A DNA stretch of 64,000 nt, taken from the IMG/VR virus record IMGVR_UViG_3300015050_001523, positions 258,519-322,518 of that record. One strand, written 5' to 3'. A model generated the notes under the pieces. The model was not told where the DNA came from. It was given only the letters and a program-made list of their open reading frames with translations, and ran no database searches. A program made the position numbers and the translations under genes. Numbering within the stretch: the stretch's first letter is position 1; each line of letters begins with the position of its first letter. Positions 8,992 through 60,318 of this stretch are shown here, piece after piece. Origin of the DNA: a virus (Duplodnaviria > Caudoviricetes).

Positions 8992-9810
8992 ATGAATGAT
9001 CAATGGCTAAAAACTCTTTTAAATGAAGAGAAAGAAGAAATAGAAAATAAAACTGAAGATCAAGATTCTTTAGAAAACTATGCCCTTTATATTGATGCAG
9101 GGCGGCATAGTTCTGATTATATTTTGTATAAGCCAAAATATTATGCACAAAAAATGAAAGAAGAAATTGATAACGCAAAAAAAGAATTTGAAAAAATTAG
9201 ATTTAAAGGAAATCAATTTAGTAAATTTAAAGATTTTTATGCATTTTCAAATGTAAAAGACATTTTTAAGGATCCGAATGGAGTTTATGGGTTTGTCTCT
9301 GTAAACAATGGTAGAATTATTGGACTAAGAGGAAGTTGTAATCGCGCAAATGAGATTCGCTCTATTTCTGCAAGAGAAGGCTTTGGGCGACTAATGTTCA
9401 TGATTGCACTTGCAAAAGAAAGCCCGATTATGTCAAATAGAGAAGATGTTTCTGTAAATGCTTATGATTATTTGACAAAGTTTACAAATAATCAAAATAT
9501 AACAATAGAACCATTTGAAAATGAAAAAAGACTTGCAAAAAAAGATAATGAAGATTGCAAAGTTTTTGGAAGCAAAATTCTTGACCAAAGCTACAAAAGC
9601 GCTGCTGATATTGATATAGAGGCCCAGCCTCTTTTAAATCGTCATAAAGTTTTTCTTCATCAAATGAAAAATTATTTTACAAATAATGGAGTTGATTTTA
9701 TTTTATCAAGAATAAAGCAATATATTTCAGATGCTGGAACTTATTTTTTTGATGAACAACGTGGAGAGCCTGGATGGTATGAGAGCTATACTCATGACGA
9801 GGAAGAATAA
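8992..9810 (+). CDS. Hypothetical protein, possible GNAT-like fold
   Basis: EIRSISAREGFGRLMFMIAL..MSNREDVSVNAYDY resembles GNAT motif A (xxGxGxxL) and the following strand. N-terminal LLNE leader. Confidence 0.4.
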   Translation: MNDQWLKTLLNEEKEEIENKTEDQDSLENYALYIDAGRHSSDYILYKPKYYAQKMKEEIDNAKKEFEKIRFKGNQFSKFKDFYAFSNVKDIFKDPNGVYGFVSVNNGRIIGLRGSCNRANEIRSISAREGFGRLMFMIALAKESPIMSNREDVSVNAYDYLTKFTNNQNITIEPFENEKRLAKKDNEDCKVFGSKILDQSYKSAADIDIEAQPLLNRHKVFLHQMKNYFTNNGVDFILSRIKQYISDAGTYFFDEQRGEPGWYESYTHDEEE

Positions 9811-10392
9811 ATGTCTTTATCAGTTATTTTAGGTTTAGACATTTCTACATCTATTACTGGTTTTTCAGTTATGAATGAAATAGATGGTTCTTTAGTTGAA
9901 CTTGGTCATTTTGACCTTTATAAAAATAAAGGCACAATGTGGGACAAGGTTGATGAAATGAAAAGACATATAATTGATCTTGGTAAAAAGTATACAATAA
10001 AACATGTTTTCATTGAAGAGCCTTTGTCAAAATTTTCAAGAGGAAGATCGTCATCAAATACAATCTCATTATTGATGAGATTTAATGGAATTTTGTCTTA
10101 TATTGTTCATGAATATCTAGGAATCACTCCTGCTTATTTTAGTCCATCTCAAGCTCGAAAGCTATGTGGGCTAAAAATGAGGAGCAAGGCCGCTTGTAAA
10201 AGAGACAAGGTACCCTGGAAGCCTCAAAAAGAACAAGCATTTGATCAGATGAATGCAAGAGCGCCATTTAATAAAACATATAATTGGCCATTAAAAAGAA
10301 CTGGAAGACTAAAGGACCATTGTTATGATGAAATGGACAGTTTTGTGGTTTGTATGGCTGGATATAAATCTCTTGTAAAAACAAAGATTTGA
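9811..10392 (+). CDS. ruvC: RuvC-like Holliday junction resolvase
   Basis: RNase H-fold catalytic motifs ILGLDISTSITG, VFIEEP and DEMDSFVV. Confidence 0.85.
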   Translation: MSLSVILGLDISTSITGFSVMNEIDGSLVELGHFDLYKNKGTMWDKVDEMKRHIIDLGKKYTIKHVFIEEPLSKFSRGRSSSNTISLLMRFNGILSYIVHEYLGITPAYFSPSQARKLCGLKMRSKAACKRDKVPWKPQKEQAFDQMNARAPFNKTYNWPLKRTGRLKDHCYDEMDSFVVCMAGYKSLVKTKI

Positions 10393-10422
10393 GTTTGTTA
10401 AATTCATAGGATATTTAACAGA

Positions 10423-11001
10423 ATGGACGAATGGGATAAGACAGTAAAATATGCAAAATCTAATATTGATGGATTTAGTGTAGAATATAAAGCAAGTTCA
10501 AGTTTTCAAAAATTAATTGCAAAATTTTTGTTTTGGATTAATTGGCTTGGCGTTTGGACGGCAATATATCCAAAAGTATGGATGCCAAAAGAATTAAGAA
10601 ATTATGCTATATTGCAACATGAAATTGTTCATTTAAAAGATGCAGAATCATTTTATGGATTACTTCCGATTAAAACAAAATGGTTAAATGTTTCATTGTT
10701 TTATTTTTCTTATTTCTCTCCTCAAATATTTTCACTTTTAGCATTTTTAGCATTTGTTAATTTGTGGTGGTTGTTATGTTTGATATTTTTGCTGCCCATA
10801 CCATCCCCAGGAAGAATGATTTCTGAAATTAGAGCATATAGAAGATCCAGAGAACTTGGAGATACATCTCAAAAAATTGCATCAGTATTTAAAGGGCCAA
10901 TGTATTTTTATATGTGGCCCTTTAAGAAACATATAAAGAATATGTTATTGAAAAAATCTCCATATAAAGAAGAAATGGATCTTATTTTGAGGGAAAACTA
11001 A
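10423..11001 (+). CDS. Membrane-associated HExxH (zincin-like) protein
   Basis: LQHEIVH plus downstream EIRAY. Hydrophobic segment FSLLAFLAFVNLWWLLCLIFLLP. Confidence 0.6.
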   Translation: MDEWDKTVKYAKSNIDGFSVEYKASSSFQKLIAKFLFWINWLGVWTAIYPKVWMPKELRNYAILQHEIVHLKDAESFYGLLPIKTKWLNVSLFYFSYFSPQIFSLLAFLAFVNLWWLLCLIFLLPIPSPGRMISEIRAYRRSRELGDTSQKIASVFKGPMYFYMWPFKKHIKNMLLKKSPYKEEMDLILREN

Positions 11002-11399
11002 TGTCATATATTCTTTCTGAAGTATTTGGAGATGCTTCAACATATATGATGGGAATTGCATTTGAAACAATTTCTTATGATCAAGAAAAAAATTCATCTG
11101 TAAAAAGAAAAGGATGGGAAATTCCTTATTTAGAAGCAGATGTTAATGATATTGATGCTTATGCTACAAAATATCAAATAGAAGCAAGAAAGACTGGCGA
11201 TGCTCATCGAACATGGGATAGTTTAGAACCATTTAAAGATGGAATGACAGGAGATGAAACATTTTATATTCTTGTTGTTAAAAATTTAGATTGGTCTGAT
11301 ATTTCAAGTGATGAGTTTCGAGAAATAAATGAAAAAATTAAAGACAATGAATCTTGGGGACTAACAGTAAATCCAAGACCATTAACTATGAATCATTAA
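11001..11399 (+). CDS. Hypothetical protein
   Basis: 132 aa, translationally coupled to the previous ORF (TAATG overlap at 10999-11003). Confidence 0.6.
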   Translation: MSYILSEVFGDASTYMMGIAFETISYDQEKNSSVKRKGWEIPYLEADVNDIDAYATKYQIEARKTGDAHRTWDSLEPFKDGMTGDETFYILVVKNLDWSDISSDEFREINEKIKDNESWGLTVNPRPLTMNH

Positions 11400-15606: not shown

Positions 15607-15894
15607 GTGAATAAAGAAGAAGCACTAAGAAAAATCATCCGAGAATCTATTATAGATGAAGGATTTATTGATTGGATAAGATCAAAATGGAAAGGGGATT
15701 CTGGAAATCTTGAATCTGCCCAAAGAGAACTAAAGCAAATCTATTCTTCAATAGATCCATTAAGAAAGGATTTTCCACGAGCGACAAAAAGAATTAGAGA
15801 AAATATTCGCCGTGCAATCTTAGATTTAGAGCATATTAATACATTGATGTCAAAAGGTATTGATGAAAAAAGTTTCCTTGATGGAGATTTATAA
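15607..15894 (+). CDS. Hypothetical protein with IIRE leader
   Basis: 95 aa, GTG start, TAGTTA at 15593-15598 upstream. Confidence 0.55.
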   Translation: MNKEEALRKIIRESIIDEGFIDWIRSKWKGDSGNLESAQRELKQIYSSIDPLRKDFPRATKRIRENIRRAILDLEHINTLMSKGIDEKSFLDGDL

Positions 15895-18693: not shown

Positions 18694-18717
18694 ACAATCA
18701 AATATATATTTATCTGT

Positions 18718-19128
18718 ATGATTTCAATGCAAAAAAGCCAACTTCAAGATTTGATAAGAGAATCATATCTTTATTCAATAATTAAAGAAGGTAAAGATCA
18801 TAATAGAGAGATTGTTTCAACTATTCTTTCTCTCAAAGACTCTTTATTAAAAAGAAATTTTATTTGTAATACCCAATATGCTCCTCCAAATCCACAAAAA
18901 AAACATCGTGACTTTGGATATTGTACTGTAAAAATTGATACAACAATTGGAAGAGGAAAAGAAATGAGTCAAAAAGCCATTATGAAACAAATAATAAGAA
19001 TGGCACAACAAATGGGACTTAACAAATATTTTTCAATAGTGGATCATGGATATGATGGGAGATATTGTAATTGCAATTTTCGCCTAAATCCTAAATTTGT
19101 TGACAAGTATATGCAACAACAAATTTAG
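18718..19128 (+). CDS. Hypothetical protein with LIRE/IIKE leader
   Basis: 136 aa. TATTTA at 18707-18712. Confidence 0.6.
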   Translation: MISMQKSQLQDLIRESYLYSIIKEGKDHNREIVSTILSLKDSLLKRNFICNTQYAPPNPQKKHRDFGYCTVKIDTTIGRGKEMSQKAIMKQIIRMAQQMGLNKYFSIVDHGYDGRYCNCNFRLNPKFVDKYMQQQI

Positions 19129-19176: not shown

Positions 19177-21255
19177 ATGGCAACAAAAAGACAAAATTTA
19201 TTTTCAAGACTAACAAGGCTTTTTAAGTCTGGACCTGTTGTAAAAAGGCAAATTAAAGGACTCGATAACTCAGCGGTCAAATCATCTGCTTTCGATGTTT
19301 TTCGGAAAAGCACAGCTACTGTTTATGGAAACAGTATGAATGCTTATGGGCAATACGATAGACTTTCTCGTTATTCAGATTTTTCGGAGATGGAATCCAC
19401 GCCTGAAATAAATACAGCTCTTGACATTTATGCAGATGAAACTGTTGCAAAGGATGAGAAAGGAAAGTGTCTTCATGTTTATTCGGAAAATCCAAAAATT
19501 CAAAGATTGCTTGAAGAATTATTTTATGACACATTAAATTTTGAATTTGTTTCAAGATCTTGGGTTCGTAATATTTGCAAATATGGAGATATGTTTCTTT
19601 TGAATGATGTATCTCCTACCCATGGAGTGATCAATGCCCATCCAATACCAGTAAATGAAGTTGAAAGAGAAGAAGGATTTGATCCTGAAAATCCTTTTGC
19701 TATTAGATTTAGATTGGTAACTCAAGGAAATCAGGTATTGGAGCCTTGGCAGATTACACACTTTAGATTGATGGGAAATGATAGTTTTACCCCATATGGT
19801 TCAAGCGTAATCGAAGGAGCAAGAAGGGTTTGGAGATCTCTTGTCATGGCTGAAGATGCCATGTTAACTTATAGAATTATTAGATCACCAGAGCGAAGAG
19901 TGTTTTATATTGACGTTGCAAATGCTCCACCAAATGATGTTCCTAATATTATTGAGAATGCAAGATCTACATTAAAGTCTCAAGAGGTTGTTGACAATAC
20001 GGCTGGAAGAGTTGATCAAAGATATAATCCATGGGCTGTAGATATTGATTATTTTATTCCTGTTCGTGGCCAAGATGGAGGAACAAGGATTGAAACACTT
20101 CCAGGAGGAGCGAATACTACAGCAATTGAAGATGTTGAATACATTCAGCGCAAGCTTTTTTCTGCACTTAAGGTTCCAAAGGCATATTTGGGATATGATG
20201 AATCTTTGGGAGGAAAAGCCAATCTTGCTGCTGAAGATGTTAGATTTGCAAGAACTATTCAACAAATTCAAGCAGTCATTATTACAGAATTAAATAAAAT
20301 AGCAGCAATTCATTTGGCAGCACATGGATATGATGGAGAGGATTTAGTAAATTTCAATCTACAATTAAGTAATCCTTCTGCTATGGCTCAACAACAAAAA
20401 CTTGAGCTTATAAGGACAAGATTTGAAATAGCTGGGACCCGCCCAGAAGGGCTATTGTCTGATAAATATTTATATAAAGAAGTTTTCCAAATGACTGATG
20501 ACACCATTGAAGAAATGGAAAAAGATCAAATTAAAGAACTTATTAGAAAAGCTCAAATGGAGCAAATGGGTGCTGCGGCTGCTGAAGGCGGAGCCGGAGG
20601 TGGAGGCGGAGGCGGAGGCGGCCTTGGTGGTCTTGGCGGTCCTGATGATGGTCTTGGTGGAATCGAAATGCCTGCGGGTGAAGAAGGTGGCGGAGAAGGA
20701 ACAGAAACACCGTCCGAAGATGGTGGAGAAACAGAGCCGCCTACAACTGATGATGATTTATTTGCAGAATCTGAGAATGATGATGAAAGTTTCCTTCTTA
20801 TGTCAAATGATGATGACAATATCATTGAGTTTGAAATTGATGAAGGAGATGAATATAAACCTGTCCATCAACAAAATCAGGCATCTAGATATAGACATAA
20901 TAACTTAAGGCCAAGCCGCAAAAAAATGATTGGTTCAAATGGAATGAGAGCAACAGATCCTGGAAAAGCGCTAGATCACAAAGATCCTCATTTTCATGAT
21001 GTTTCATTAAAGAGAAATTGGAGTGCTGCAACATCTATTGCAAAGGATGGTTCATTCAAATTAGCAGATTCTGTTCAACGACAAATGGGAATTATAGAGA
21101 ATTCAGAAAATAAAAGAACAAGATTGTCTAGTGAAATGAAATATGCTTTAGATTCTCTTCCAAAAGGAGTATTTATAAAAGGAAATACTTTAAAGAAAAA
21201 TGAAAATTTTAAATCTTCAAATCTTATTATTGAATCCGATGGAGATGACGTGTAA
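19177..21255 (+). CDS. Portal protein (T4 gp20-like) with Gly/acidic C-terminal extension
   Basis: EDAMLTYRIIRSPERRVFYIDV, DYFIPVRG...IETLPGG, DVEYIQRKLFSALKVP, EDVRFARTI are gp20-family motifs. Follows terL. SD GGGGAG. Confidence 0.92.
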   Translation: MATKRQNLFSRLTRLFKSGPVVKRQIKGLDNSAVKSSAFDVFRKSTATVYGNSMNAYGQYDRLSRYSDFSEMESTPEINTALDIYADETVAKDEKGKCLHVYSENPKIQRLLEELFYDTLNFEFVSRSWVRNICKYGDMFLLNDVSPTHGVINAHPIPVNEVEREEGFDPENPFAIRFRLVTQGNQVLEPWQITHFRLMGNDSFTPYGSSVIEGARRVWRSLVMAEDAMLTYRIIRSPERRVFYIDVANAPPNDVPNIIENARSTLKSQEVVDNTAGRVDQRYNPWAVDIDYFIPVRGQDGGTRIETLPGGANTTAIEDVEYIQRKLFSALKVPKAYLGYDESLGGKANLAAEDVRFARTIQQIQAVIITELNKIAAIHLAAHGYDGEDLVNFNLQLSNPSAMAQQQKLELIRTRFEIAGTRPEGLLSDKYLYKEVFQMTDDTIEEMEKDQIKELIRKAQMEQMGAAAAEGGAGGGGGGGGGLGGLGGPDDGLGGIEMPAGEEGGGEGTETPSEDGGETEPPTTDDDLFAESENDDESFLLMSNDDDNIIEFEIDEGDEYKPVHQQNQASRYRHNNLRPSRKKMIGSNGMRATDPGKALDHKDPHFHDVSLKRNWSAATSIAKDGSFKLADSVQRQMGIIENSENKRTRLSSEMKYALDSLPKGVFIKGNTLKKNENFKSSNLIIESDGDDV

Positions 21256-22103
21256 TGACAAGACATAATAAAAAAAGAAATACTGGGCTTCTATACGAAT
21301 TTCTTGTTAGATCTATTTCTGATTCAGTGATTGAAGGAGATGAAAAAAGAAGGAATACAGCCTTATCTATTATAAAAAAACACTTTACAGCAGGAAGTGA
21401 ATTATATAAAGAATTTAGATTATTCCATTCCTTAGCCGCATCTACTGTGAAAAGTTCATCTGTGGCAGATACTATTTTAGAAACAGCGAAAAAAGCTTCA
21501 TCAATGTGTGATATTGAAAAGCTTGATTATGAAAAATCATTACTTATCAGAAGCATTAATCATGGATTGGGAGATGGTAATTTTTATGATAGAAAAATTT
21601 CTGAATATAAAATTTATGCCACTATTCAAACATTATTAAATGAATGGAGAAGTGGTCAATATAATAATATTGTTGAATTAGCTCAATTTGAAGAACAGCT
21701 AAAAGAATGGCTATTGAAAGAAAAAAAAGTAAATGCATTAAATGAAGAAACAAATTTTTCTGTCAGGGATCCTTTAGTTGAAAAACTCATGATTAAAAAA
21801 ATAAATGAAAAATATAATGAAAGCCTAAATGAAGAACAGGCAAACATTATTCGTTCTTATATTTTTGCCAAGGATGAAGTTACTAAAAACAAATTGATTG
21901 AAAATTTAGAATTGATCAAAACTAAAACTCTTAATGAAATTGATTCATATTTCGCAGTCAGTCAAGGAAAAGATAAATTTTTTGATGAAAAATTAAAAAA
22001 AGCAAAATCATTGATTTTGAAAGAAAACATTGATTCAATTGATGATGAGAAAATTGAAAAATTCTTAGATATTTCAAAGCTTGGGCAGGAGATTAGGAAT
22101 TAG
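21255..22103 (+). CDS. Head-morphogenesis-associated hypothetical protein
   Basis: 282 aa (MTRHNKKRNTGLLYEFLVR), coupled between portal and protease, with several LNEE motifs. Confidence 0.55.
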   Translation: MTRHNKKRNTGLLYEFLVRSISDSVIEGDEKRRNTALSIIKKHFTAGSELYKEFRLFHSLAASTVKSSSVADTILETAKKASSMCDIEKLDYEKSLLIRSINHGLGDGNFYDRKISEYKIYATIQTLLNEWRSGQYNNIVELAQFEEQLKEWLLKEKKVNALNEETNFSVRDPLVEKLMIKKINEKYNESLNEEQANIIRSYIFAKDEVTKNKLIENLELIKTKTLNEIDSYFAVSQGKDKFFDEKLKKAKSLILKENIDSIDDEKIEKFLDISKLGQEIRN

Positions 22104-22104: not shown

Positions 22105-22725
22105 ATGCAAAAAGTTTTAACAGAATGGACAAAATTTGAAGGAGAAATTATTAAAGAAGAAAAAACTTCTTATAATAATGGAAAGCCCAAATTGACAATG
22201 AAGGGTATATTGCAAAGAGCAGATACTTTAAATCAAAATGGAAGAATTTATCCAAAAAGAATACTGGAAAAAGAGTTAAGAAATTATCAAAAATTGATTC
22301 GAGAAAGACGTGCAACCGGTTCTCTTGACCATACAGATAGTTCAATTATTGAATTAACGACAGTTTCTCATCTTGTAACAGAAGCCTGGATGGATGGAGA
22401 CATTATTTATGGAAAAGTAGAAATACTTCCAACTCCACATGGAGATACTTTAAGAAATCTTGTTGAGGCAAATGTAACTGTTGGAATTTCTTCTCGTGGA
22501 GTTGGAACTACAAAATCTGATGCGAATGGTCATCAGATTGTTCAAGAAGATTTTCAATTAATTTGTTGGGATTTCGTATCTGAGCCTTCAACCCCAGGTG
22601 GCTTCATGATGAAAGAAGGCAGAGATTTGACAAATGTAGATCTTAAAGAATTAAAGAAATTTTTTGATAAAAGCGATAGAATTGACAGAGTAGTTAATGA
22701 CATCCTTGAATGGGGGACCAAATAA
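22105..22725 (+). CDS. Prohead core protease (T4 gp21-like)
   Basis: GILQRADTLNQNGRIYP, GSLDH (His), VGISSRGVG (Ser), WDFVSEPSTPG. ATG at 22105 follows AGGA. Confidence 0.92.
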   Translation: MQKVLTEWTKFEGEIIKEEKTSYNNGKPKLTMKGILQRADTLNQNGRIYPKRILEKELRNYQKLIRERRATGSLDHTDSSIIELTTVSHLVTEAWMDGDIIYGKVEILPTPHGDTLRNLVEANVTVGISSRGVGTTKSDANGHQIVQEDFQLICWDFVSEPSTPGGFMMKEGRDLTNVDLKELKKFFDKSDRIDRVVNDILEWGTK

Positions 22726-23120: not shown

Positions 23121-23843
23121 ATGAAAAAAACTGAATTTAAAGAATTTGTAAAAGAAATGTTTTTGGAGCTAATCGAAAATGATGATGAAGTTCGAGAAGT
23201 GATTCTAGAATTTGCACAAAAAAATTTAGGAGCAATTTCTGAGTCCAAAGTCGTCAAAGAACCTTCAGATCCTGAGCTTTATGACAAATTAATGCTAATT
23301 GCTTCTGGAAAAGAAAGCAAAATGATTTATGAAGGGAAAACAATAAAGACTCCAAATTATGGAAATGGATTTAAATCTGGAAAACATATTAAAGAATGGG
23401 CAAATGGAATATATTCCAAGATTGGTGGAAAATGGAGCACTTCCCAAACTTCTCAACAAAATGGAGTAAGTAATGATACTTTATCTTTTCTTTCTGCAAT
23501 GGGAGGAGCTGAAGGTGGAGGAGATATAAGAAATGTTGGCTCATCAGGAAATGATAGACTAATAATGGAAACTATTAGAAGGGCTGGACATGGAACAACA
23601 ATCGGCGTAGATGAAAATGGAAATATTGATTCTGGAAGTGCTATCGATATTACAAGTATTTTGGCAGATACTGCAAAAACAACATCTCAAAATTTTCCTT
23701 CTTCGCATGAAGGGGGAGCACAAGCCGCATCTAGAATGGCAGGCGGGCAAGAATCATTTCAAGGAGCCCCAGAAAAGGTTTTTGCAGAATCGGCAGGAAA
23801 TTGGGCTGCATTAGCTTTCCATGGAATGGGTTCTGGAAAATAA
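23121..23843 (+). CDS. Hypothetical head-cluster protein
   Basis: 240 aa with FVKE/FLE/LIE leader and Gly/Ser-rich C-terminal half. Confidence 0.55.
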   Translation: MKKTEFKEFVKEMFLELIENDDEVREVILEFAQKNLGAISESKVVKEPSDPELYDKLMLIASGKESKMIYEGKTIKTPNYGNGFKSGKHIKEWANGIYSKIGGKWSTSQTSQQNGVSNDTLSFLSAMGGAEGGGDIRNVGSSGNDRLIMETIRRAGHGTTIGVDENGNIDSGSAIDITSILADTAKTTSQNFPSSHEGGAQAASRMAGGQESFQGAPEKVFAESAGNWAALAFHGMGSGK

Positions 23844-23898: not shown

Positions 23899-24246
23899 AT
23901 GGCTAGAGAAATTGACAAAAATGAACTTGTAAGTCTTGTAATGGAAGTTGTATCCGAAGTTGAAAAGGATTTAAAAAAAGTACAAGCAAAAGAAGTAACA
24001 CCTGACGAGTATGCAGATACTCTTGAGAAACCAATCGATTGGGAATCAAAACTTGGACTTAAACCAAGTGTTTCTGGAAAGGAAATGCTTGAAGCACTTA
24101 AAATTAAAGAAGCTAAGGCTATTAGAATTGCTAAACAACTTCGCTCTCAAAGAGAGGCTTTAATGGAAACTATGAGAGCAGAAGAAATGCTTGCAGAAAA
24201 TAAACGTCTTAGAAAGGCGATTCAAAGAGCAAAAGCATCAAGATAA
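23899..24246 (+). CDS. Hypothetical head-cluster protein
   Basis: 115 aa, AAAGGAG SD, TATTTA at 23856-23861. Confidence 0.6.
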   Translation: MAREIDKNELVSLVMEVVSEVEKDLKKVQAKEVTPDEYADTLEKPIDWESKLGLKPSVSGKEMLEALKIKEAKAIRIAKQLRSQREALMETMRAEEMLAENKRLRKAIQRAKASR

Positions 24247-25461: not shown

Positions 25462-27447
25462 ATGACAGCCATTCATAAAGAAGCATTGGCAGATGCTAAA
25501 AGATTGCGAGAAGTTGCAGAAGAAAATGCAAAACAAGCAATTATAGAACAAATAACTCCAACAATTAAAAATATGATTGAAAGGGAATTGCTTGGTGAAT
25601 CTTATGATGGAGTTGAAGAAGACATTCTTATTTCTCCAAATAAAGAAGAAAAAGAAAAAAAAGAAGAGGAAGATGAGCGAGTAGATGAAGTGACATTGAC
25701 AAATGAGTCTGTTGCTGCCTTGGCCCAAATGAAAATGAACAGTGCAAAATCTGAACATTATGGCGTCCGCACATTAAGAATCTCTGAGAAGATTGATAGG
25801 CTTCATGAAGCTAAAGTAAATGAAAATACTTATGGCGAAAAACTTCGACAAATAAAAAATGAAGTTGAGAAGACTTTCATAGAGCTTCAAGAAGATAAGA
25901 AAAAAAATATCGTACCAGACAATTCAGCTAACCTTATCGAAGGAAAGCTTGAAGAGTTGTGGGAAGTCACAAATAATTTGATGATTCCTGTAAAGGTTCG
26001 ACAAATCAATGAAAGCAATAAAGAAATTTCTAATAAATTTAGTAAATTTAAAATTATTGCTGAAGAGTATTCCCTTACAAACGGGGCAAAACAAAGATTC
26101 GGACAAGAGTGTATTAAGTTAGTAAAAGAAACTAAAGCACTCTTCAATTCTATAGCCGAATTAAAGGAAGTAACTAAGGATAGTTCGGTTGAGAAAGTCC
26201 ACAATGAAACAAGTGGATTATTTAAGGAGATTTACAAAATGGCTAAAAAATTTGGTTCACTAAACGAAGAAGAACTTAAGATTGTTATAAGTGGATTAAA
26301 CACTGACGATCTTGAGGGGTCACCACTATCAGCAATGGTTGAGCCCGCAGACGAAGACATGGATGACGACATGGACATGGATGACATGGGCATGGATGAC
26401 GATATGGGCGATGACATGGGTGGAGACGAAATGGACGATATTGGAATGGATGACATGGATGACGAAGAAAAGATTGACGAATATACATATTCAGCATCTG
26501 GAGGTCGTGGTCGTGGCGTTCGTAGTATGTCACAAAAAGTTCAGGCAGATCCAGATAAAAAGTCAACTATTGGAGGTTCGGCTAAGACCGGCAGAGATTG
26601 GAGCGAAGATAGCGGCAGAGATTGGAGTGACGAAGAAAGAAAAGCTGCTGGTCTTCCACGTAAAAAACAACAAGAAGGCGATGAAATGCTTGAAATCAGC
26701 GAAGTTATGCTTAAACAAGAACTTTTAAGATTAAAGAAAAGAAGAGCCGCAATGAGCGAAGCTATGAAAGCGATGAAAGGCCCTGGCTCATTTGATAATT
26801 TTGGAGGAGCAGGAAGATCAGGTGGAGGAGTTGAAGGCGATGTATTCGAAGACTTCAATGATCTCAATGGACTTGATCCTGTTGGAGAAGCTGGTTCTGT
26901 AAATGAGAGCGAAGAAGAAATGGACGAATATACTTATAAAGCATCTGGCGGCAGTGGCCGTGGTGTTCGTAGTATGTCCAAAAAAATTCAAGCTGACCCA
27001 AAGAAAGTTTATCAAGGGGATAAAAAAGAAGAAAAATCTGATGAACCTTTGAAAAAAGAAGTTAGAGCATATAAGAAAGCAATTCTTAATATGCAGGAAA
27101 ATTACGAAAAAATACAACAACAACTCCGCGAAAGTAACCTTTCAAATGCGAAGTTAGTATATGCAACAAAACTCATGCAGAATGAGAATCTTTCCAAAAA
27201 ACAACGACTTATAGTGGTCGAGCAATTGGATCAAGCACAATCTGTACGGGAAGTCAAGAAATTATTTACTGCTCTTAAAGAAGCCCTTGAAAAAGGTAAC
27301 ACAAAGAGCAAGCTCACTGAAAGTGCAGAGAGAAAGGTCATTGGAGGATCAAGCCGAGCAACTGGCTCTGGCTCAACCACTCTCACTGAATCAGAAAACA
27401 AAGAATTTGCTCGCTGGGGACAGTTGGCAGGATTTTTGAAAGGATAA
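25462..27447 (+). CDS. Prohead core scaffold protein (gp22-like)
   Basis: Directly upstream of MCP, highly charged. ALADAKRLREVAEENAK start, LRESNLSNAKLVYATKL...LDQAQSVREVK and RWGQLAG end. Many LxE sites. Confidence 0.8.
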   Translation: MTAIHKEALADAKRLREVAEENAKQAIIEQITPTIKNMIERELLGESYDGVEEDILISPNKEEKEKKEEEDERVDEVTLTNESVAALAQMKMNSAKSEHYGVRTLRISEKIDRLHEAKVNENTYGEKLRQIKNEVEKTFIELQEDKKKNIVPDNSANLIEGKLEELWEVTNNLMIPVKVRQINESNKEISNKFSKFKIIAEEYSLTNGAKQRFGQECIKLVKETKALFNSIAELKEVTKDSSVEKVHNETSGLFKEIYKMAKKFGSLNEEELKIVISGLNTDDLEGSPLSAMVEPADEDMDDDMDMDDMGMDDDMGDDMGGDEMDDIGMDDMDDEEKIDEYTYSASGGRGRGVRSMSQKVQADPDKKSTIGGSAKTGRDWSEDSGRDWSDEERKAAGLPRKKQQEGDEMLEISEVMLKQELLRLKKRRAAMSEAMKAMKGPGSFDNFGGAGRSGGGVEGDVFEDFNDLNGLDPVGEAGSVNESEEEMDEYTYKASGGSGRGVRSMSKKIQADPKKVYQGDKKEEKSDEPLKKEVRAYKKAILNMQENYEKIQQQLRESNLSNAKLVYATKLMQNENLSKKQRLIVVEQLDQAQSVREVKKLFTALKEALEKGNTKSKLTESAERKVIGGSSRATGSGSTTLTESENKEFARWGQLAGFLKG

Positions 27448-27479: not shown

Positions 27480-29354
27480 ATGAGTTTTAATCTTGATATA
27501 TTAACAGAAGGCGTTCGCGGACGTCACGTTGGACAAGAGGCACAACGCCTTACAGAAAAATGGAATAAAACTGGTCTTCTTAGAGGATTGACCGGATACG
27601 ACAAAGAGAACATGGCAAGATTGCTTGAAAGTCAGGCTGCCGAAGTTCTTCGTGAATCGTCAAGCCTTTCAACCGGTGGTGCTGCACTTACAAGCTCAGG
27701 ACAAGTTCGAGGCTTTTCAAATGTTGCATTCCCAATCGTTCGTCGAGTATTCGGCGGATTGGTTTCAAATGAATTGGTAAGTATGCAGCCTATGAGTTTG
27801 CCAGCCGGATTGCTTTTCTACCTCGATTATACCTATGGTAATAACGTTGGTGGAGAAGGTTCAGCTACCGATACAGTGTATCGTGCTGGCGATTCACTAT
27901 ATAACAACCCAACTGGTGCTGGAGTTCGTTCAGGTTCTCTTGCAGCTGGTGGTCAATATGACCTTGTTGGTAGCGGATTTACAAAAGTCCACTCAGGTTC
28001 ATTAACTGTATCAGGTTCCAACGTAAATGTTGGTGCATTTACTGGTGCAGCTAATGCTTGGGCTGCTGCCGGCACTGTAAGAACAACAAGTGACTTCACA
28101 GGATCAAATGCAAGACTTGTCTCTTTCGATCCACAAATTGAAGAAGCTTTGGATCTTGGAACAAAAGACTACTGTTTCGCATTCATTTCCGTTGCTGCAT
28201 TGGCCTCTGCAATCCCAACTGGCGATGTAAATCATGTAAAACAAATTGCTATTACCGATATGGGAACAGCAAATGGAGTTACTACATGGGGTGAAACATT
28301 CCAAGGTGGTCGTGGAATTCTAAACCTTCGTCGTTGGAATGAACGAGGAGATTGGAACGGCACAACATTCACACCTAAGCCAATGGGCGGAGACCATATC
28401 AAAATGGTTCTTGCATTAACAAATGCCGGTTCTGTTCCAACAATCGGTTCAGCAAACGTCCGTGTATCGATGGCAGTTTCTGATACTCTAAATGTTGGAA
28501 GTACAGATGGAGACACTCTTACCATTCCTTCATTCGAAACTGATTTTGCCGTTGATGCAAACCCAGCTATTCCTGAAATCGATATTAAGATCGAACAGAT
28601 TAGCGTAGTTGCCACAACTCGTAAATTGAGAGCACGTTGGTCACCAGAACTTGCTCAGGATCTTAATGCTTTCCACAGCCTTGATGCTGAAGTCGAGCTT
28701 ACAAAGATTCTATCCGAGCAAATCGCTATCGATATCGATCGAGAAATCTTGAACGATCTCCTTACCGAAGGAAATGGTGCGAACTACTACTGGAGCAGAG
28801 CCCCAGGTAGATTCGTAAACAAACGAACTGGAACAGAAGTTCAAATGAGCTCAACACTTGCAACTGGTCCTCAGTTTACTGGAACCGTTCGTGAATGGTA
28901 TGAAACACTTGTTGAAACTATCATCGACGTTGCAAATGAAATCCATAAGAAAACCCTTCGCGGTTCTGCCAACTTTATTGTTGTTGGACCTGATGTAGCT
29001 ACAATTTTGGAGCAAAGCGCTCTTTACAAAAATAGCTACAAGATCGATGGAAATGGACAAGTTTCAAATCCTCATACTATCGGTGCCGAAAACATTGGTA
29101 GTGTTGGAAATAGATTCACCGTCTACAAAGATCCAAGCTTCCCACGTCCGAAAATCCTTGTTGGATTCAAAGGTGGAAACTACCTTGAAACCGGTTATGT
29201 GTACGCACCTTATGTGCCACTTATCGTAACTCCAACAATCTTCGCACAGGAAGATTTCTCACCAAGAAAAGGTGTTATGACCAGATATGGTAAGAAAATG
29301 GTCAGAAGTGACTTCTACGGAACAGTAACTGTTCTTGATCTCAACATCATCTAA
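27480..29354 (+). CDS. Major capsid protein (T4 gp23-like)
   Basis: FPIVRRVF, VSMQPMSLPAGLLFY, TRKLRARWSPELAQDLNAFHSLDAEVEL, YAPYVPL, PRKGVMTRYG. Strong SD and a terminator downstream. Confidence 0.95.
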   Translation: MSFNLDILTEGVRGRHVGQEAQRLTEKWNKTGLLRGLTGYDKENMARLLESQAAEVLRESSSLSTGGAALTSSGQVRGFSNVAFPIVRRVFGGLVSNELVSMQPMSLPAGLLFYLDYTYGNNVGGEGSATDTVYRAGDSLYNNPTGAGVRSGSLAAGGQYDLVGSGFTKVHSGSLTVSGSNVNVGAFTGAANAWAAAGTVRTTSDFTGSNARLVSFDPQIEEALDLGTKDYCFAFISVAALASAIPTGDVNHVKQIAITDMGTANGVTTWGETFQGGRGILNLRRWNERGDWNGTTFTPKPMGGDHIKMVLALTNAGSVPTIGSANVRVSMAVSDTLNVGSTDGDTLTIPSFETDFAVDANPAIPEIDIKIEQISVVATTRKLRARWSPELAQDLNAFHSLDAEVELTKILSEQIAIDIDREILNDLLTEGNGANYYWSRAPGRFVNKRTGTEVQMSSTLATGPQFTGTVREWYETLVETIIDVANEIHKKTLRGSANFIVVGPDVATILEQSALYKNSYKIDGNGQVSNPHTIGAENIGSVGNRFTVYKDPSFPRPKILVGFKGGNYLETGYVYAPYVPLIVTPTIFAQEDFSPRKGVMTRYGKKMVRSDFYGTVTVLDLNII

Positions 29355-29374
29355 CACTTAGGTGTTACTGATTC

Positions 29375-29400
29375 AAAAGGACCCGAAAGGGTCCTTTTTT
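29375..29400 (+). terminator. Rho-independent terminator after MCP
   Basis: AAAAGGACCC-GAAA-GGGTCCTTTTTT, a GNRA-loop stem with a T tract. A second small hairpin TAACAC-TTAG-GTGTTA (29352-29367) overlaps the MCP stop. Confidence 0.9.
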
Positions 29401-29458
29401 GTTTAAGTTAATTCCTTTCTTTATAAATTAGACATTTATATATGGTAAGATAAACCAT

Positions 29459-30091: not shown

Positions 30092-30103
30092 GAGAAATGA
30101 AAA

Positions 30104-30736: not shown

Positions 30737-30840
30737 TACTAATCGTTAACCTATATTAAAATTAAAATCAATAATTATTATTCTTATTAGATGGCAAATG
30801 ATATTTGTGCTCAATATTTAATTGAGAGGATTTTATTATC

Positions 30841-31266: not shown

Positions 31267-31274
31267 GAAAAAAT

Positions 31275-31457
31275 ATGAGACTACAAGAAATTTGTGAAAG
31301 CCTTATATTAAAATATAAATTTCCTAATATCATAACCTCTATTGAAGAAACAAATAAGAGACTTTTTGAAGTAGAAAAAAATATTATATTACTTCCAATG
31401 TTTGAATATGAATGGCCAGAAACAATTTATAATTATTATAATTATATAGTCGAATAA
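31275..31457 (+). CDS. Small hypothetical protein
   Basis: 60 aa, AGGA SD, MRLQE leader. Confidence 0.4.
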   Translation: MRLQEICESLILKYKFPNIITSIEETNKRLFEVEKNIILLPMFEYEWPETIYNYYNYIVE

Positions 31458-31530
31458 TAATTTAGATTTAAATTGTTTTAAAGAGCCCATAATGGGCTCT
31501 TTAATTTTAAGTAAATATTTATAATCATAT

Positions 31531-33030
31531 ATGACAAGTCCAATTAAGACATATTTGAATGAATTATTTTCCTTAATGGAGGGAAAGCTAGATTTATTAA
31601 AAAAGAAATATAATAATATTTCTTCTGATGACATAGAAGAGATTTATAGTCTTGATCCAAGTAAAACAAAAAAATATTCTAATTGGATGGTTCGACAATT
31701 TGCAAATGGGTATTCTCTTAAAGATATTCATTCAATTATTATTGATTTTGAAAAAAAGCAGAAATTACTTTCAAAACAGGATATAGAGCAATATAAAACA
31801 TTAGACACATTAAAGTCGGCTCTATCTGATGTCTCATCAAAGTCTGAAGAGAAAAGAAAAACAAAAAAAGAAGGCTCTAAAAAGATATACGAAGATGATG
31901 AAGTTCTTGTTATTCGTCTTGATTCAAAAGAGGCTTGCGTCATTTATGGCAAAGGATCAAAGTGGTGCATCGCGCAAAAAGAAGAAGAATATTATGAGAG
32001 ATATAAATCAAATAATGTAATCTTTTATTTTTTATTGAGTAAAATTTATAATGATTCAATTAATTCAAAGATAGCAATATCTGTTGAAAGAGATACTGAA
32101 AATAATGTTGTTGCTGTCAACTTTTGGGATGCACAAGACGGCACTATCAAGCCTGAAGAATTGGCAGGGCTATATAAAAATGGAGAAAAAATAATATCGA
32201 TTTGTATAGATAATGCAAAAAAGCAAGAATCATCAATTTTGTCAAAAATTATTAATGGAACATATTCAAGAGAAGAATTAGATGAATATATAAAATTTGC
32301 CGATATAAATAGTGAATTTTTTAGAAGAAAAATTTTTCCTAAAATTAGAGAAGAAGATGACGATATTATTATTAATTATCTTACATTAGACAATGTAACT
32401 TTGGAAGTTTTAAAATCTATACTTCCTGGTATTTCAAATGTAAATATGATAAGGCTTTTAGATAAAGGATTTTTAAGTAAGATTATTCAAGCTTATGAGT
32501 TTTTAGAAGTTTATGATTGGGGCGTACTCCCAGAGTCTCTACTAAATAAAATTATTGAATCAAGAAATGTAAAAGGGTTTTTTATTTTATTTTATTCAAT
32601 GGCCGGAAGAAAACTATTGTATAAAAATTATATCTTACCAATTGAAAATATTCATTCTAATGTTTTGAAAGAATTAGAAGAGCTTATGGTTGGATTATTG
32701 AATATTATTGAGTTATCAGAGAAAGACGAAAGTGAAGAAAAAAGCAAAAAGGTAACAGAAGTAATGACAAATATTTTGTCAAATTATCTTGATTCAATAA
32801 AACGTTGGAATTTAAAAAATATTCTACTTCCACAACAGGAGTATTATAGAATAGCAATAAATATAAAAGATTTTTTATCTAAAATATCAGTATTAGAATC
32901 TTTGACAGAAGATAGAGCTTGGGAAAACTCTATAATAGATAATAAATTAAAAAATAAAATGAAAATTGTAAATTCTAATTTGGGAAATCTTATTGAATTA
33001 ATAAATGGATATTTATCAAAAAATTTATAA
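31531..33030 (+). CDS. PcfJ-like 'YG..WC' domain protein
   Basis: LDPSKTKKYSNWM, IYEDDEVLVIRLDSKEACVIYGKGSKWCIA, YERY..NNVIFYF. This pattern recurs in large-phage proteins. TATTTA at 31516-31521. Confidence 0.55.
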   Translation: MTSPIKTYLNELFSLMEGKLDLLKKKYNNISSDDIEEIYSLDPSKTKKYSNWMVRQFANGYSLKDIHSIIIDFEKKQKLLSKQDIEQYKTLDTLKSALSDVSSKSEEKRKTKKEGSKKIYEDDEVLVIRLDSKEACVIYGKGSKWCIAQKEEEYYERYKSNNVIFYFLLSKIYNDSINSKIAISVERDTENNVVAVNFWDAQDGTIKPEELAGLYKNGEKIISICIDNAKKQESSILSKIINGTYSREELDEYIKFADINSEFFRRKIFPKIREEDDDIIINYLTLDNVTLEVLKSILPGISNVNMIRLLDKGFLSKIIQAYEFLEVYDWGVLPESLLNKIIESRNVKGFFILFYSMAGRKLLYKNYILPIENIHSNVLKELEELMVGLLNIIELSEKDESEEKSKKVTEVMTNILSNYLDSIKRWNLKNILLPQQEYYRIAINIKDFLSKISVLESLTEDRAWENSIIDNKLKNKMKIVNSNLGNLIELINGYLSKNL

Positions 33031-33040
33031 TAAATAAAAA

Positions 33041-33460
33041 TTAATAAATTTTATAAATTTTAGGATTTTTTATCCCATAAGATTTTACAAGTTGGCCAGC
33101 AACTGAATTGGCTTCATCTTCAATGTGACCGCCTACACCATCCTGATTTATTATTTTAATACGTTCTTGTTCATTTTGTTGGTGATGTACCAATTCATGA
33201 GCAAGGCTTCGTAAAATATCTGACAAGCACCTTCCTCGACCAACAATTTTGATTGTTCTTTTGTCTGGCCAGTAAGCGCCATGACTACCACCTGGGTTCT
33301 CCTCGACAATTGAGATTGTTGGGGATTTTTTAATTTCTAATTTTTCTATGCAAAAAGCAAGAAAATCTTGAATATCTGATTCAATATTGTTCTTGTCTTC
33401 AAGTTGCATTTTTACTATATTTTCTTTTAAAAGTTCTTGAATAAAGTCTTTTAGAATCAT
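33041..33460 (-). CDS. Zincin-like HExxH metallopeptidase; only minus-strand gene
   Basis: RSLAHELVHHQQ plus IEDEANSVAG. It fills the gap between two + strand genes without overlapping either. Confidence 0.75.
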   Translation of the reverse strand: MILKDFIQELLKENIVKMQLEDKNNIESDIQDFLAFCIEKLEIKKSPTISIVEENPGGSHGAYWPDKRTIKIVGRGRCLSDILRSLAHELVHHQQNEQERIKIINQDGVGGHIEDEANSVAGQLVKSYGIKNPKIYKIY

Positions 33461-33511
33461 CTTACATATAAGTATTTATCTTTCGGCTTTGTTTCCATAT
33501 TTATCATTATT

Positions 33512-34695: not shown

Positions 34696-35991
34696 ATGAA
34701 AAAAAATATTATATTAAAAGAAATATTTGATGATCTTTATGATGATTATCACCAAGAGACCAAACAAGGAGAATTTGATCAAAAAGAAGATCCTTTTTTA
34801 TATGGGGCAAATCCTTTAGAAAAGGATCCAATGTATGATATGGACAATTCTTTTGAAGAAAAAGAAGTGCCTAGCAATTGGGATCAGGCTTATGATGCTG
34901 TATTGAATTGGGCTACAAAATCAGGAATTAAAGCGACAGAAGAAGATATTATTAATGCCGCAGATTATTGGGATGTTGGAGTTGAAGATTTGACTCCTGG
35001 TTCTATAGAAAAATCAATGAATGCCTCTCCAAGAGAAAAATTTAATAAAAAACAAGTTAGAGGCCAAAGAATAAAAAGATGGGACGCAGGATATCGGTCA
35101 AGGCCAAGAAATAGGGAAGACGTCAGAATTGATAATGAAGAACTTCAAGAAGCCCCTATTCGAGACTTTGAAACAATTGGAACTCCAATAAATAAGCCTG
35201 GTGGAGCTTTCTCCTCTCAAGATCGGAAACTTTTATCTAATCCAAAAGCGATTCAAAAAATCATAAAAAAATGGGAAAAAACTGAACATACTTTTGATAT
35301 TTATCTTTTAAAAGTTCCTCAATTGAATAAGCCAGAATATAGAGAATATGGTGTTGTTCAGCCTGGTTCTAAATTTAGTACAGAATATATAAAATATGTT
35401 GGAGAGCCTGTTCCTAATAGTCCATCTGGTATAACAATTCTTTTTAATGGAAATATGGGAGATGAAAAGGTTCCAATGACTGCCTGGATTATGGCTCATA
35501 GATTTGGACATTCGGTAAGAAGAGATATTCCTGAATGGAAAGATTTTGTTGCAGAGGTTGTTGAACTAACAAAAAGAATTACTGAAGAAGTTTATGACAA
35601 AACTTTAGAGTCTTTAAAAAGTGATGGATTTTTTAAAAATATAAGATTTTGGGAAAATGAAAATAACGAAAGACAGGAAGAACTTTTATCTCTTTTCTTT
35701 AACCAAATTGGAAATTTTAAGTCTGCTAGAGAAAATAATATAAGAAATTATTATGAATTTTTTTATGAATTATTTGCACAATATATAATAACTGGCTCCG
35801 TTCAATTTAGAGAATTGCCAGAATCTCTAATTATTAAAAATCTTCCATTTGGTAGAAAACAGTCAGTTGCTGCATTAGATCCTGATTTGGTTGGAATGTG
35901 GAACAGAGATTTAGAATATTATGCAAAACAAATTGATTCAAGAATAGAAAATCTATTAGATTCTTGTGTCGGAAAAACATTTTTAATGTAG
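34696..35991 (+). CDS. Hypothetical protein with zincin-like HRxGH motif
   Basis: WIMAHRFGH and ELFAQY. Acidic N-terminal region ending LQE-AP. Confidence 0.5.
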   Translation: MKKNIILKEIFDDLYDDYHQETKQGEFDQKEDPFLYGANPLEKDPMYDMDNSFEEKEVPSNWDQAYDAVLNWATKSGIKATEEDIINAADYWDVGVEDLTPGSIEKSMNASPREKFNKKQVRGQRIKRWDAGYRSRPRNREDVRIDNEELQEAPIRDFETIGTPINKPGGAFSSQDRKLLSNPKAIQKIIKKWEKTEHTFDIYLLKVPQLNKPEYREYGVVQPGSKFSTEYIKYVGEPVPNSPSGITILFNGNMGDEKVPMTAWIMAHRFGHSVRRDIPEWKDFVAEVVELTKRITEEVYDKTLESLKSDGFFKNIRFWENENNERQEELLSLFFNQIGNFKSARENNIRNYYEFFYELFAQYIITGSVQFRELPESLIIKNLPFGRKQSVAALDPDLVGMWNRDLEYYAKQIDSRIENLLDSCVGKTFLM

Positions 35992-57476: not shown

Positions 57477-57480
57477 GACG

Positions 57481-58767: not shown

Positions 58768-59044
58768 AGCATTACTTGCCAAACTTTCACAACATAAAGA
58801 AGAGATTGGTACATATAGTCATTTAAATGACTATCCATTTGAAACAAGTGGACCAATTACTGACACTCTGTTTGATTATAAAATGGAAAAACATGAATTA
58901 GAGTCTCAGACATGGCCAATTTGGCTACTTCCTGAAGATTTTCGATCATGGTATATTCATGAACAAAATGTTAGAAAGAATTCTGGGAGGATGAGCCTCC
59001 CAGAACCTCCTATTGATGTAATCTTCAAAGTATTTAGAACATAG
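58748..59044 (+). CDS. Hypothetical protein
   Basis: 98 aa, overlapping the previous stop. Confidence 0.45.
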   Translation: MKKKKSKALLAKLSQHKEEIGTYSHLNDYPFETSGPITDTLFDYKMEKHELESQTWPIWLLPEDFRSWYIHEQNVRKNSGRMSLPEPPIDVIFKVFRT

Positions 59045-59059
59045 AACATATTTACTATT

Positions 59060-59938
59060 GTGATTCTTGATGACAGTAAGTATCTTTCTTTAAAATTCAT
59101 TTTTAATTTAAATGAGAGTGGAATTTTTGGAGGAACTCTTGATTCCACTCATTTACAATCCAAAATGCCTAAGCCATGGAATATAAGTGGTCAAAGCGGC
59201 AGAATGAATCAATCTCCAACAATGATGGCATCGAGATTGATGCAAAATACTTCAACTGAAGAAGATATCAAATATTGGATGGGAGATCCTGACGATCCAG
59301 AAAGCAAAGGAGCTACATTTGATCCTCCATATATGTTATCTTGGGACCGAGATCCATGGATAAAGGAAATTGATGAGTATTTATCTAATATGGAAAGCCT
59401 TCAAGAGTTATTTGGTTTTAAAAAAACTCCATCAAAAATATATTCATCTTTAATTGCTAATCGTGAAAAATATCAAATTTATGCACAAGAGACATTAAAA
59501 AAAGCTCTTGTGCATAAGAAGTTTAAAGAAAAAATAGTAAAGAAAGGAGAATTAACTCCTGAAAGGATTAGGCTCATTGAAAAAAATGAAGATATTGCGC
59601 TTAATTCTCTTATAAAACTTAAGAATGAAACAGAAAAAAATATTGAGTTTTTAAGAGTTTATAAAGATGAATTTGGAATAGATAATGATTTTCCTTTATT
59701 GGTTGCGGCTTATGGAAATATTCTAAATAAAGTTGATCAAATATTATTTGCCATAAGACAGGCTACAAGCATTCAAGGAATGCCATCGAATAGTGAACTT
59801 GATGAAATGTCTTCTATTGGAGGAGGCTCTATAGCTGGACATATCGGGCCATTAGGAACAGACAATAGAAGTCCATATTTAAAGGATAAAAAGAAGAAAG
59901 CTAATTCTTCTAAAGGATCATTTGGCGGAGCGCTATAA
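59060..59938 (+). CDS. Hypothetical protein with several LxE sites
   Basis: GTG start after TATTTA (59049-59054). LNE-S, LQE-L and LDE-MSSIGGGSIAG sites. Confidence 0.55.
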   Translation: MILDDSKYLSLKFIFNLNESGIFGGTLDSTHLQSKMPKPWNISGQSGRMNQSPTMMASRLMQNTSTEEDIKYWMGDPDDPESKGATFDPPYMLSWDRDPWIKEIDEYLSNMESLQELFGFKKTPSKIYSSLIANREKYQIYAQETLKKALVHKKFKEKIVKKGELTPERIRLIEKNEDIALNSLIKLKNETEKNIEFLRVYKDEFGIDNDFPLLVAAYGNILNKVDQILFAIRQATSIQGMPSNSELDEMSSIGGGSIAGHIGPLGTDNRSPYLKDKKKKANSSKGSFGGAL

Positions 59939-60318
59939 TGACAAATTTGCTTGAAAGTGTAATCTCCCAAATCATATATGAAATATATGATCCAAAAATG
60001 AAATGGATGGGATTTATTCTTGGAACGAAGAAAATAAAAGATAAGAATTCTGATGAAGTGATTGAAGACCCTGTTCTTTTAGATTTAAAAGATATGGGAT
60101 TTGAACCTTTTACAGTATTTTATTTTGGAAAAATTGGATATTTAATTCCAAACATTCCAAAACGAGACATTATTGAATTTGGAAAAAAGCATAAAAAAGG
60201 TATTGCTTGGGGAAGCAAAATGGAAGACAATATTTCTTTTCATTGGCAATATCTTGAAGATGGAAAGATTCGCGGCCAAAACACATCGCGTCATCCGTAT
60301 ATTGTTCCAAAATTTTAA
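59938..60318 (+). CDS. Hypothetical protein
   Basis: 126 aa, TAATG-coupled, LLE/IIYE leader. Confidence 0.55.
   Translation: MTNLLESVISQIIYEIYDPKMKWMGFILGTKKIKDKNSDEVIEDPVLLDLKDMGFEPFTVFYFGKIGYLIPNIPKRDIIEFGKKHKKGIAWGSKMEDNISFHWQYLEDGKIRGQNTSRHPYIVPKF

Follow-up and report, generated by a model that had tools for sequence, protein, structure and literature searches.

A lineage-specific N-terminal leader ending in hydrophobic-x-Glu on head-module and accessory proteins of an uncultured T4-related jumbo phage

In bacteriophage T4, the internal proteins IPI, IPII, IPIII and Alt carry a capsid-targeting sequence (CTS) that is removed by the gp21 protease, according to the accounts of Mullaney and Black (1996) given in PMC5694885, PMC3012670 and PMC12991175. 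Gp21 cuts after Glu in the motif I/LxE; the internal proteins, Alt and gp24 lose N-terminal propeptides of 10-20 residues to it, and gp22, gp67 and gp68 are degraded (PMC5694885, PMC12991175, PMC3012670). In phiKZ and SPN3US the motifs are A/S/G-x-E and the propeptides exceed 100 aa (PMC5694885, PMC10052503). Here we describe an N-terminal leader in a T4-type late region that forms the 3′ end of a 322,518-bp viral record (IMGVR_UViG_3300015050_001523; 33.6% G+C, held as a 93%-complete virus). The 64-kb stretch analyzed is referred to as the window, and open reading frames (ORFs) are named by their first coordinate in it. A first-pass annotation had proposed that twelve otherwise unrelated ORFs in the window share an N-terminal leader ending in [LIV]xE and are loaded into the prohead. 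A leader exists, but it is narrower and otherwise defined than in that annotation. We read it as a probable variant, specific to this lineage, of the way in which T4 targets proteins to the capsid and processes their propeptides.

The leader is seen in relatives of the phage. IMG/VR holds at least 600 relatives of its major capsid protein (MCP), and 80 loci were fetched, each consisting of the MCP gene and up to 10 kb per side. In these relatives, several ORFs in the hypervariable gap that follows the capsid gene open with strikingly similar peptides. The commonest form is MK-[LIV]-[ST]-x-x-Q-L-[RK]-x-[IL]-[IV]-[RK]-E. A regular expression for the leader matched 38 times in 1,550 non-redundant ORFs of the relatives (434,000 residues), and 30 of the 38 matches fell within the first 20 aa, where 8% would be expected (p about 3e-26). 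A position matrix seeded with these matches returned, in its first round, 88 matches of at least 16 bits, 82 of them N-terminal. Its consensus, [TS]-[RK]-x-Q-L-[RK]-x-[IL]-[IV]-[RK]-E-[CE]-[ILV], usually begins 2-6 residues past the Met, and the Glu is its most conserved column, save for a Cys that is specific to one cluster.

The 134 leader carriers fall into 35 clusters that have no similarity to one another beyond the leader. Of these, three are large and syntenic, one lying between terminase and portal and two directly following the protease and a conserved gene of 125 aa. About thirty others consist of accessory ORFs and are small or have a single member. Two of the 35, those of the large terminase (TerL) and of the homologue of ORF 36014, were judged to be false positives. 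When matrices were built with one cluster left out at a time, 98%, 100%, 100% and 91% of leaders scored above the 99th percentile of internal windows, a test that is only partly independent, as cluster membership was first set with the full matrix. The earlier idea of a shared N-terminal leader on unrelated proteins is borne out in this clade. Pfam and PHROGs searches with all twelve listed ORFs and ten leader-bearing relatives returned no informative family.

The same leader is found in the phage itself. Gene starts were taken from a crude longest-ORF caller, which gave 456 ORFs genome-wide, and were scored with a matrix made from the relatives only, with internal windows as the null. Ten ORFs reached p <= 0.003, against 1.4 expected. 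Among all six-frame ATG or GTG starts followed by at least 40 open codons (n = 3,403), 10 distinct starts scored 12 bits or more, and nine of these are true gene starts (Fisher p = 1e-7). Four of the nine are in the window, at 15607, 18718, 23121 and 23899, and all four were on the first-pass list. The other five lie elsewhere in the genome; in all, at least three carriers are placed outside the window.

The four canonical carriers in the window differ in their settings. ORF 15607..15894 (+; 95 aa, GTG start) begins with ALRKIIRE followed by SIIDE|G and scores 19.4 bits (p = 0.0004), the second best of the 3,403 candidate starts; it has no homologue among the 80 loci. ORF 18718..19128 (+; 136 aa) occupies the slot of leader protein C, between TerL and portal. 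Its leader comprises residues 1-15 and 16-24 (nt 18718-18789) and scored 19.4 bits with the first relatives-only matrix and 13.0 bits (p = 0.002) with the final one. ORF 23121..23843 (+; 240 aa), leader protein A, is a syntenic head-core or internal protein encoded after the protease; its leader (nt 23121-23177) scores 12.3 bits (p = 0.003), and its orthologues form cluster A, with 43 members and leaders of up to 27-32 bits. The next gene, 23899..24246 (+; 115 aa), encodes leader protein B. Its leader (nt 23899-23964) scores 12.4 bits (p = 0.003), and tblastn ties it to cluster B, whose 28 members (75-113 aa) occupy the same position. By the matrix, the canonical leader is not present in 8992, 11001, 31275, 31531, 34696, 59060 or 59938, nor at the N-termini of the MCP and the protease.

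Three more of the listed ORFs, 8992, 33041(-) and 34696, are supported only through comparison of their homologue families. Leaders within these families are variable, some canonical and some absent, and a hydrophobic-x-Glu stands directly before the conserved domain. ORF 33041..33460 (-; 139 aa) encodes a small zincin-like protein (HELVH) with the leader MILKDFIQELLKE at nt 33422-33460 and a borderline matrix score (p = 0.017). Its homologues are leaderless (120-128 aa), or have a leader of the type found in the window, M-[IL]-L-x-x-x-I-x-E-h-h-x-E, or have the canonical type, I-T-E-S-Q-L-K-x-L-I-L-x-E, at 16-17 bits. The HExxH core is invariant in this family, the invariant columns being H88, E89, H92, E114, A117 and N118.

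ORF 34696..35991 (+; 431 aa) consists of the leader MKKNIILKE, an N-domain of 149 aa, the junction LQE152|APIRDF (nt 35143-35151) and a conserved domain of 280 aa that starts at residue 153. In its family (n = 93), the pattern x-x-E|[AMSTN]-P-[IVM] precedes the conserved domain in 72 members. Among these 72, the P3 residue is hydrophobic (L, I, V, M or F) in 70, and P2 is free. Most members have an N-terminal leader of about 3 to 26 aa, ranging from T4-like (MKTFKQFLQE) to fully canonical (25-29 bits). ORF 34696 and some homologues have the long extra N-domain instead, which itself begins with a short leader-like peptide, and a second cut would seem to fall at LQE152|A. The 280-aa domain was modeled with an AF2 pLDDT of 90.6. 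Its zincin-like matches are weak (E about 0.4, Z 3.6). Instead of HExxH, its invariant motif reads H-R-x-x-H.

ORF 8992..9810 (+; 272 aa) has a leader that ends in LLNE12 (nt 8992-9027). Most of the 28 representatives of its family open with a leader of the type L-R-x-Y-I-R-x-h-h-x-E|AA, and one has a canonical leader of 18.8 bits. The model of the protein has a pLDDT of 81, and its top fold matches are mostly GNAT acetyltransferases at E = 0.1-0.8. Because the fold matches are weak, we regard the zincin-like assignment of 34696 and the GNAT-like assignment of 8992 as tentative. The proposal that the cargo is enzyme-like draws weak support from these two proteins and from the HExxH motif of 33041(-). 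Leader gain or loss may also have occurred in another pair of ORFs in the relatives. L004:11564-12115 and L002:5872-6384 are apparent homologues of about 175 aa with a common …DQPSTMIA.YP… after the start; one has the 13-aa leader MSLLREYIQNLITE and the other does not. From this comparison, the pair looks like a further case of the same process.

With four canonical leaders and three backed by families, five ORFs of the first-pass list are left, of which three are weak candidates and two are without evidence. ORF 11001..11399 (+; 132 aa) has a 7-aa leader, and the three known sequences of its family all have M-x-x-h-L-x-E followed by a conserved [VM]FG. ORF 31531..33030 (+; 499 aa) has a leader ending in LME17|G, with ATATTTA 9 nt upstream. 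Its matrix score is not significant, and its sole homologue retains the first 17 aa nearly intact. In the stretch 31531-31578 the public gene call begins at Met16, but the 15 residues upstream are kept at 13 of 15 positions in the sole homologue, compared with 65% over the whole protein, so the longer form is probably real. ORF 59060..59938 (+; 292 aa, GTG start) has ATATTTA 5 nt upstream and a single homologue (L089) that conserves the N-terminal LSLK..FNL[SN]E; the matrix score is again not significant. These three N-termini are compatible with a short leader and prove little. The two ORFs without support are 31275..31457 (+; 60 aa; matrix p = 0.19), which has no tblastn homologue in the 80 loci, and 59938..60318 (+; 126 aa; p = 0.025, not significant after correction), which has no relatives in IMG/VR. 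In L001, an ORF at the position equivalent to 31275 has a similar MRLQEIC start.

The window holds a T4-type head module. The first-pass annotation had assumed a T4 gp21-type protease, and this premise holds. ORF 22105..22725 (+; alternative start TTG at 22081) is a prohead protease of the T4 gp21 family (S77), with matches to PF03420 (E = 2e-27), phrog_207 and PDB 5jbl (E = 4e-19). Its LDH aligns with T4 LNH85 and its SSRG with T4 ASRG140, at the catalytic His and Ser; the catalytic residues of T4 gp21 are H85 and S140 (PMC12991175). The protease gene sits beside those for a gp20-type portal (19177-21255; PF07230, E = 6e-70) and a gp23-type MCP (27480..29354, +; PF07068, E = 9e-71). TerL is encoded at 16568-18217. 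ORF 25462..27447 (+) lies directly 5′ of the MCP gene, has ATATTTA upstream and is present in all 80 related loci; from its position and composition we infer that it encodes the scaffold, the gp22 analogue. A prohead-core candidate, 21255..22103 (+), lies between portal and protease, is found in 51 of the 80 loci, and keeps L-x-Y-E and L-V-E near its N-terminus among relatives. Judged by the portal, the phage is closest among cultured phages to Microcystis phage Mel-JY01 (41% identity) and Flavobacterium phage vB_FspM_immuto (38%); a megablast search of the phage collection with the head region gave no match. Upstream of the head module, ORF 12446-15595 (1,049 aa) matches SbcD-like PHROG profiles in its N-terminal part and SbcC-like profiles in its C-terminal part, and looks like a fused SbcCD/gp46-gp47-type nuclease.

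Several proteins of this module have features of gp21-type substrates. Across 81 aligned MCPs, A-q-v-L-[KR]-E stands out as a conserved motif about 30 residues before a VRR motif. The corresponding VLRE59|S of this phage (nt 27645-27656) lies in the region of the T4 gp23 cut at LTE65|A and is the probable maturation site. The VL[KR]E of the MCP resembles the core of the leader, with two hydrophobic residues, a basic residue and Glu. Genome-wide, the most significant excess of [LIV]xE beyond composition includes the scaffold, 21255, the protease and 23121. With 30 sites, the scaffold is the densest protein in the genome (p = 7e-6; z = 5 against shuffles); 21255 has 15 sites (z = 3.4), the protease 11 (z = 4.1) and 23121 10 (z = 4.0). 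Eight of the nine ORFs from 21255 to the MCP gene have an N-terminal [LIV]xE (p = 0.0014). The MCP site and the dense core proteins would fit a T4-like protease specificity. The earlier statement that the leader motif recurs in the MCP, protease and scaffold is right, and in a stronger form, for whole-protein density in the last two and for VLRE59 of the MCP, but not for ILTE10, the MCP site it had named, which is not conserved, nor for a leader at the MCP and protease N-termini. A complex prediction of the protease with residues 1-45 of 18718 scored 0.02 and carries no weight either way.

The leader can be set beside the T4 CTS. In both systems a short N-terminal leader ending in hydrophobic-x-Glu is found on unrelated, fast-evolving proteins, in the company of a gp21-family protease and gp20/gp23-type head genes, and the leader is modular, being present or absent within families. 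The usual leader here differs in being longer (13-21 aa), with its own consensus …Q-L-[RK]-x-[IL]-[IV]-[RK]-E, in being carried by three syntenic head-module proteins and enzyme-like domains as well, and in being known from sequence alone. The order portal, small core proteins, protease, scaffold, MCP is that of the T4 core genes (gp22, gp67, gp68, gp24), and the core proteins are likewise dense in [LI]xE. The T4 N-termini MAKINELLRE of gp24 and MLKEQLIAE of gp22 (AF158101) resemble short versions of the leader. Unlike T4, this phage has two leader proteins encoded after the protease and one between TerL and portal; 21255, 23121, 23899 and 18718 have no detectable homology to gp67 or gp68, and no gp24 paralogue was identified in this phage. 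Like phiKZ and SPN3US, it has a protease related to gp21, and it would share with them a large number of processed inner-head proteins and more than one cut site per propeptide; the 149-aa N-terminal part of 34696 before the conserved junction looks similar. The P3 residue here is L/I/V, however, and leader length is mostly 8-21 aa, both of which resemble T4.

The motif with which the first-pass annotation defined its family does not define one. All twelve ORFs and their quoted N-terminal strings were found in place, with GTG start codons at 15607 and 59060. The density of [LIV]xE in this proteome is 0.018 per residue, and the motif occurs within the first 25 aa of 35% of the 456 ORFs, compared with 33% of 3,138 internal 25-aa windows. 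The annotation had named equal frequency at other N-termini as the result that would speak against it, and for the loose motif that is what we find. The window has 26 such N-termini among 57 ORFs, versus 135 among 399 in the rest of the genome (Fisher p = 0.057). When all N-termini were compared with one another, no pair of listed leaders ranked higher than 331st of 89,676. The listed leaders resemble each other no more than random N-termini do. [LIV]xE is so cheap in this proteome that it cannot pick out a family.

An 8-residue pattern resembling the T4 CTS, K-[TDES]-[FYW]-..., was N-terminal only in 23121, 31531 and 33041(-). It was found post hoc, and we dropped it as evidence, since unbiased pairwise scoring places its pairs at the top 0.4-1.8%. 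A second type of N-terminus, M-[KN]-L-[KN]-x-[IL]-[IL], was seen at 5 of 456 starts compared with 1 of 1,612 internal Met residues, which are small numbers; the sites are window 6129 and 29459 and genome 7429, 7791 and 150028. The comparison of all N-termini with one another was dominated by a large family of small paralogues with MORN-like repeats, encoded outside the window (for example, genome ~48,000-206,000), which have the N-termini KNGLIID..G.K.YYLN..LHR and an internal HREDGPAIEW.

The first-pass annotation also suggested that most of its ORFs have a TAnTTA element of their own and that promoter and leader form a portable cassette. TAnTTA precedes seven of the twelve ORFs, as it does 37.5% of window ORFs; its frequency in random 60-nt windows is 9.7%. 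A sharper element is ATATTTA, which leads the 7-mers enriched upstream of window genes (11 of 56, with about 1 expected). ATATTTA precedes the capsid, scaffold, neck and tape-measure-sized genes and some leader genes, and also genes for leaderless proteins. Its position before late structural genes generally would make it a general late-promoter element, not one specific to the leader. A single case looks like a cassette. In 18718, ATATTTA (18706-18712) lies 5 nt before the ATG, and the arrangement ATATTTA-N5-ATG followed by the leader in register recurs in its L092 homologue, which retains both, and in an ORF at genome 161389. The leaders of 18718 and genome 161389 are identical at 11 of 18 residues, with 59% DNA identity over 54 nt, and the two proteins are unrelated beyond the leader (BLASTP E = 0.41). 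In other carrier pairs the identity of the leader-coding DNA is at background.

Short spacing of ATATTTA was noted more widely. In many late genes the element lies 5-9 nt before the start, with no Shine-Dalgarno sequence, as at 18706-18720, 10411-10425, 31515-31533, 33497-33514 and 59048-59062 and at genome 161389 and 179986; from this spacing, late mRNAs may be leaderless or nearly so. In other late genes the distance to ATATTTA is 17-37 nt, and AGGAG or AGGAT accompanies the element.

T-even phages are said to have a hyperplastic internal-protein locus, reportedly described by Repoila and colleagues in 1994, in which variable ORFs sit behind a conserved cassette of late promoter and CTS. A comparable slot exists in this clade. 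The gap between the MCP gene and the neck-like homologue of ORF 33512 (window 29354-33512; L001-L080) is hypervariable, ranging from 171 bp to 9.7 kb with unrelated content. In the relatives it holds zinc-finger-like proteins, putative lipoproteins, tail-fibre-like ORFs and several leader-bearing ORFs. The likeness to the T-even locus is that of a fixed slot with different ORFs in different relatives.

The reading we favor is that the leader is a T4-like capsid-targeting propeptide cut by the gp21-family protease, which we consider fairly probable on present evidence. The prohead of this T4-related jumbo phage would be built and matured in T4 style, with the gp21-family serine protease cutting after Glu at hydrophobic-x-Glu sites. 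A short amphipathic N-terminal helix with a terminal cut site would serve as both capsid-targeting sequence and propeptide, also in its shorter and its Y-I-containing variants: it would dock the protein onto the assembling scaffold core and then be clipped off. Its syntenic carriers in the head module would be 18718, in the TerL-portal slot, together with the pair encoded after the protease, 23121 and 23899; 15607, 33041(-), 8992 and 34696 would be exchangeable accessory carriers in the window. Core binding, cleavage, presence in the virion and ejection into the host are all predicted by this scheme.

Several observations weigh against this reading. The phage is uncultured, and the case is built from sequence. 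The matrices were seeded and iterated on N-terminal matches, so the enrichment is partly circular, and they also catch conserved N-termini in two proteins that would not be expected as cargo, TerL and the 36014 homologue. The high-scoring 'leader' at genome 97643 (DUF6900) falls inside its Pfam domain and for that reason is probably spurious. The short variants (8992, 11001, 31531, the N-terminus of 34696, and 59060) are indistinguishable from chance within one genome. Some carriers are among minus-strand genes far from the late region, without ATATTTA upstream, so late co-expression of all carriers remains an assumption. Finally, one phage with a 34696 homologue that has a T4-like leader shows a gene for a ClpP-type protease nearby and not S77. 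The contexts of two distant 34696 homologues, both phage-like, showed no S77 protease within 10 kb.

Could the pattern arise by composition, given the AT richness of the genome and its abundance of I, L, K and E, with no shared signal at all? The background frequency of the loose motif, the unremarkable pairwise similarity of the listed leaders, and the five of twelve ORFs that are weak or unsupported all point that way. The specific leader, however, is about ten-fold enriched at N-termini both in the relatives and in this genome, is common to non-homologous clusters, and is gained or lost within families at a fixed hydrophobic-x-Glu junction. Chance is already largely refuted for the canonical leader, and as an account of everything seen here it is quite improbable. 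The leader might instead be a real N-terminal helix that is not cleaved and that serves oligomerization, scaffold-like assembly, or docking to some other phage or host machine. It is helical and amphipathic, and it is carried by small head-module proteins that are perhaps scaffold-like themselves. Yet its most conserved features are the P3 hydrophobic residue and the P1 Glu with P2 free, which is the specificity of gp21, and conserved domains start directly past the Glu. The leader is free to vary in length and sequence and is missing from some homologues, so a disposable tag fits better than a structural element, and an uncleaved helix appears unlikely.

Two further explanations carry less weight still. 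Constraint could act on the nucleic acid, with the first codons held by translation initiation on leaderless or short-leader late mRNAs (ATATTTA-N5-ATG). Several carriers do begin 5 nt past ATATTTA (18718, genome 161389 and genome 179986, and likewise the L092 homologue), but in most (23121, 23899, 15607, and clusters A and B) the spacing is ordinary or a Shine-Dalgarno sequence is present, and the amino-acid pattern is kept over 13-20 residues while DNA identity is near background save in one pair. We consider such a constraint very improbable as the source of the leader. The idea that the leader is a recognition tag for another modifying enzyme, for example a radical-SAM-linked one, is hardly credible: no radical-SAM domain was found in the 93%-complete genome, and the tag ends in a protease motif and is concentrated in the head module.

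For annotation, the lesson is that a lone [LIV]xE near an N-terminus is uninformative; leader profiles and family-level conservation of the junction are required. The propeptide reading has a wider form, which we put forward only tentatively: the leader may be an address label, readable from sequence, in a very large clade of uncultured T4-like phages, most of them freshwater and marine. In that case, the set of proteins that each phage injects would be predictable from its genome. That set would include exchangeable enzyme-like effectors, namely a small HExxH zincin, a GNAT-like protein and the widespread 280-aa HRxxH domain family, whose hydrophobic-x-Glu|Ala-Pro junction is kept in most of about 90 divergent homologues. 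Recombination would swap the leader on and off domains, sometimes together with the minimal late promoter ATATTTA-N5-ATG. T4 injects its internal proteins to counter host defences and to take over the cell, and their fast evolution makes such proteins difficult to recognize. With a leader that is specific to the lineage and open to scoring, candidate injected proteins could be listed for hundreds of uncultured jumbo phages, and three families, none with a Pfam annotation, would stand out as likely packaged effectors.

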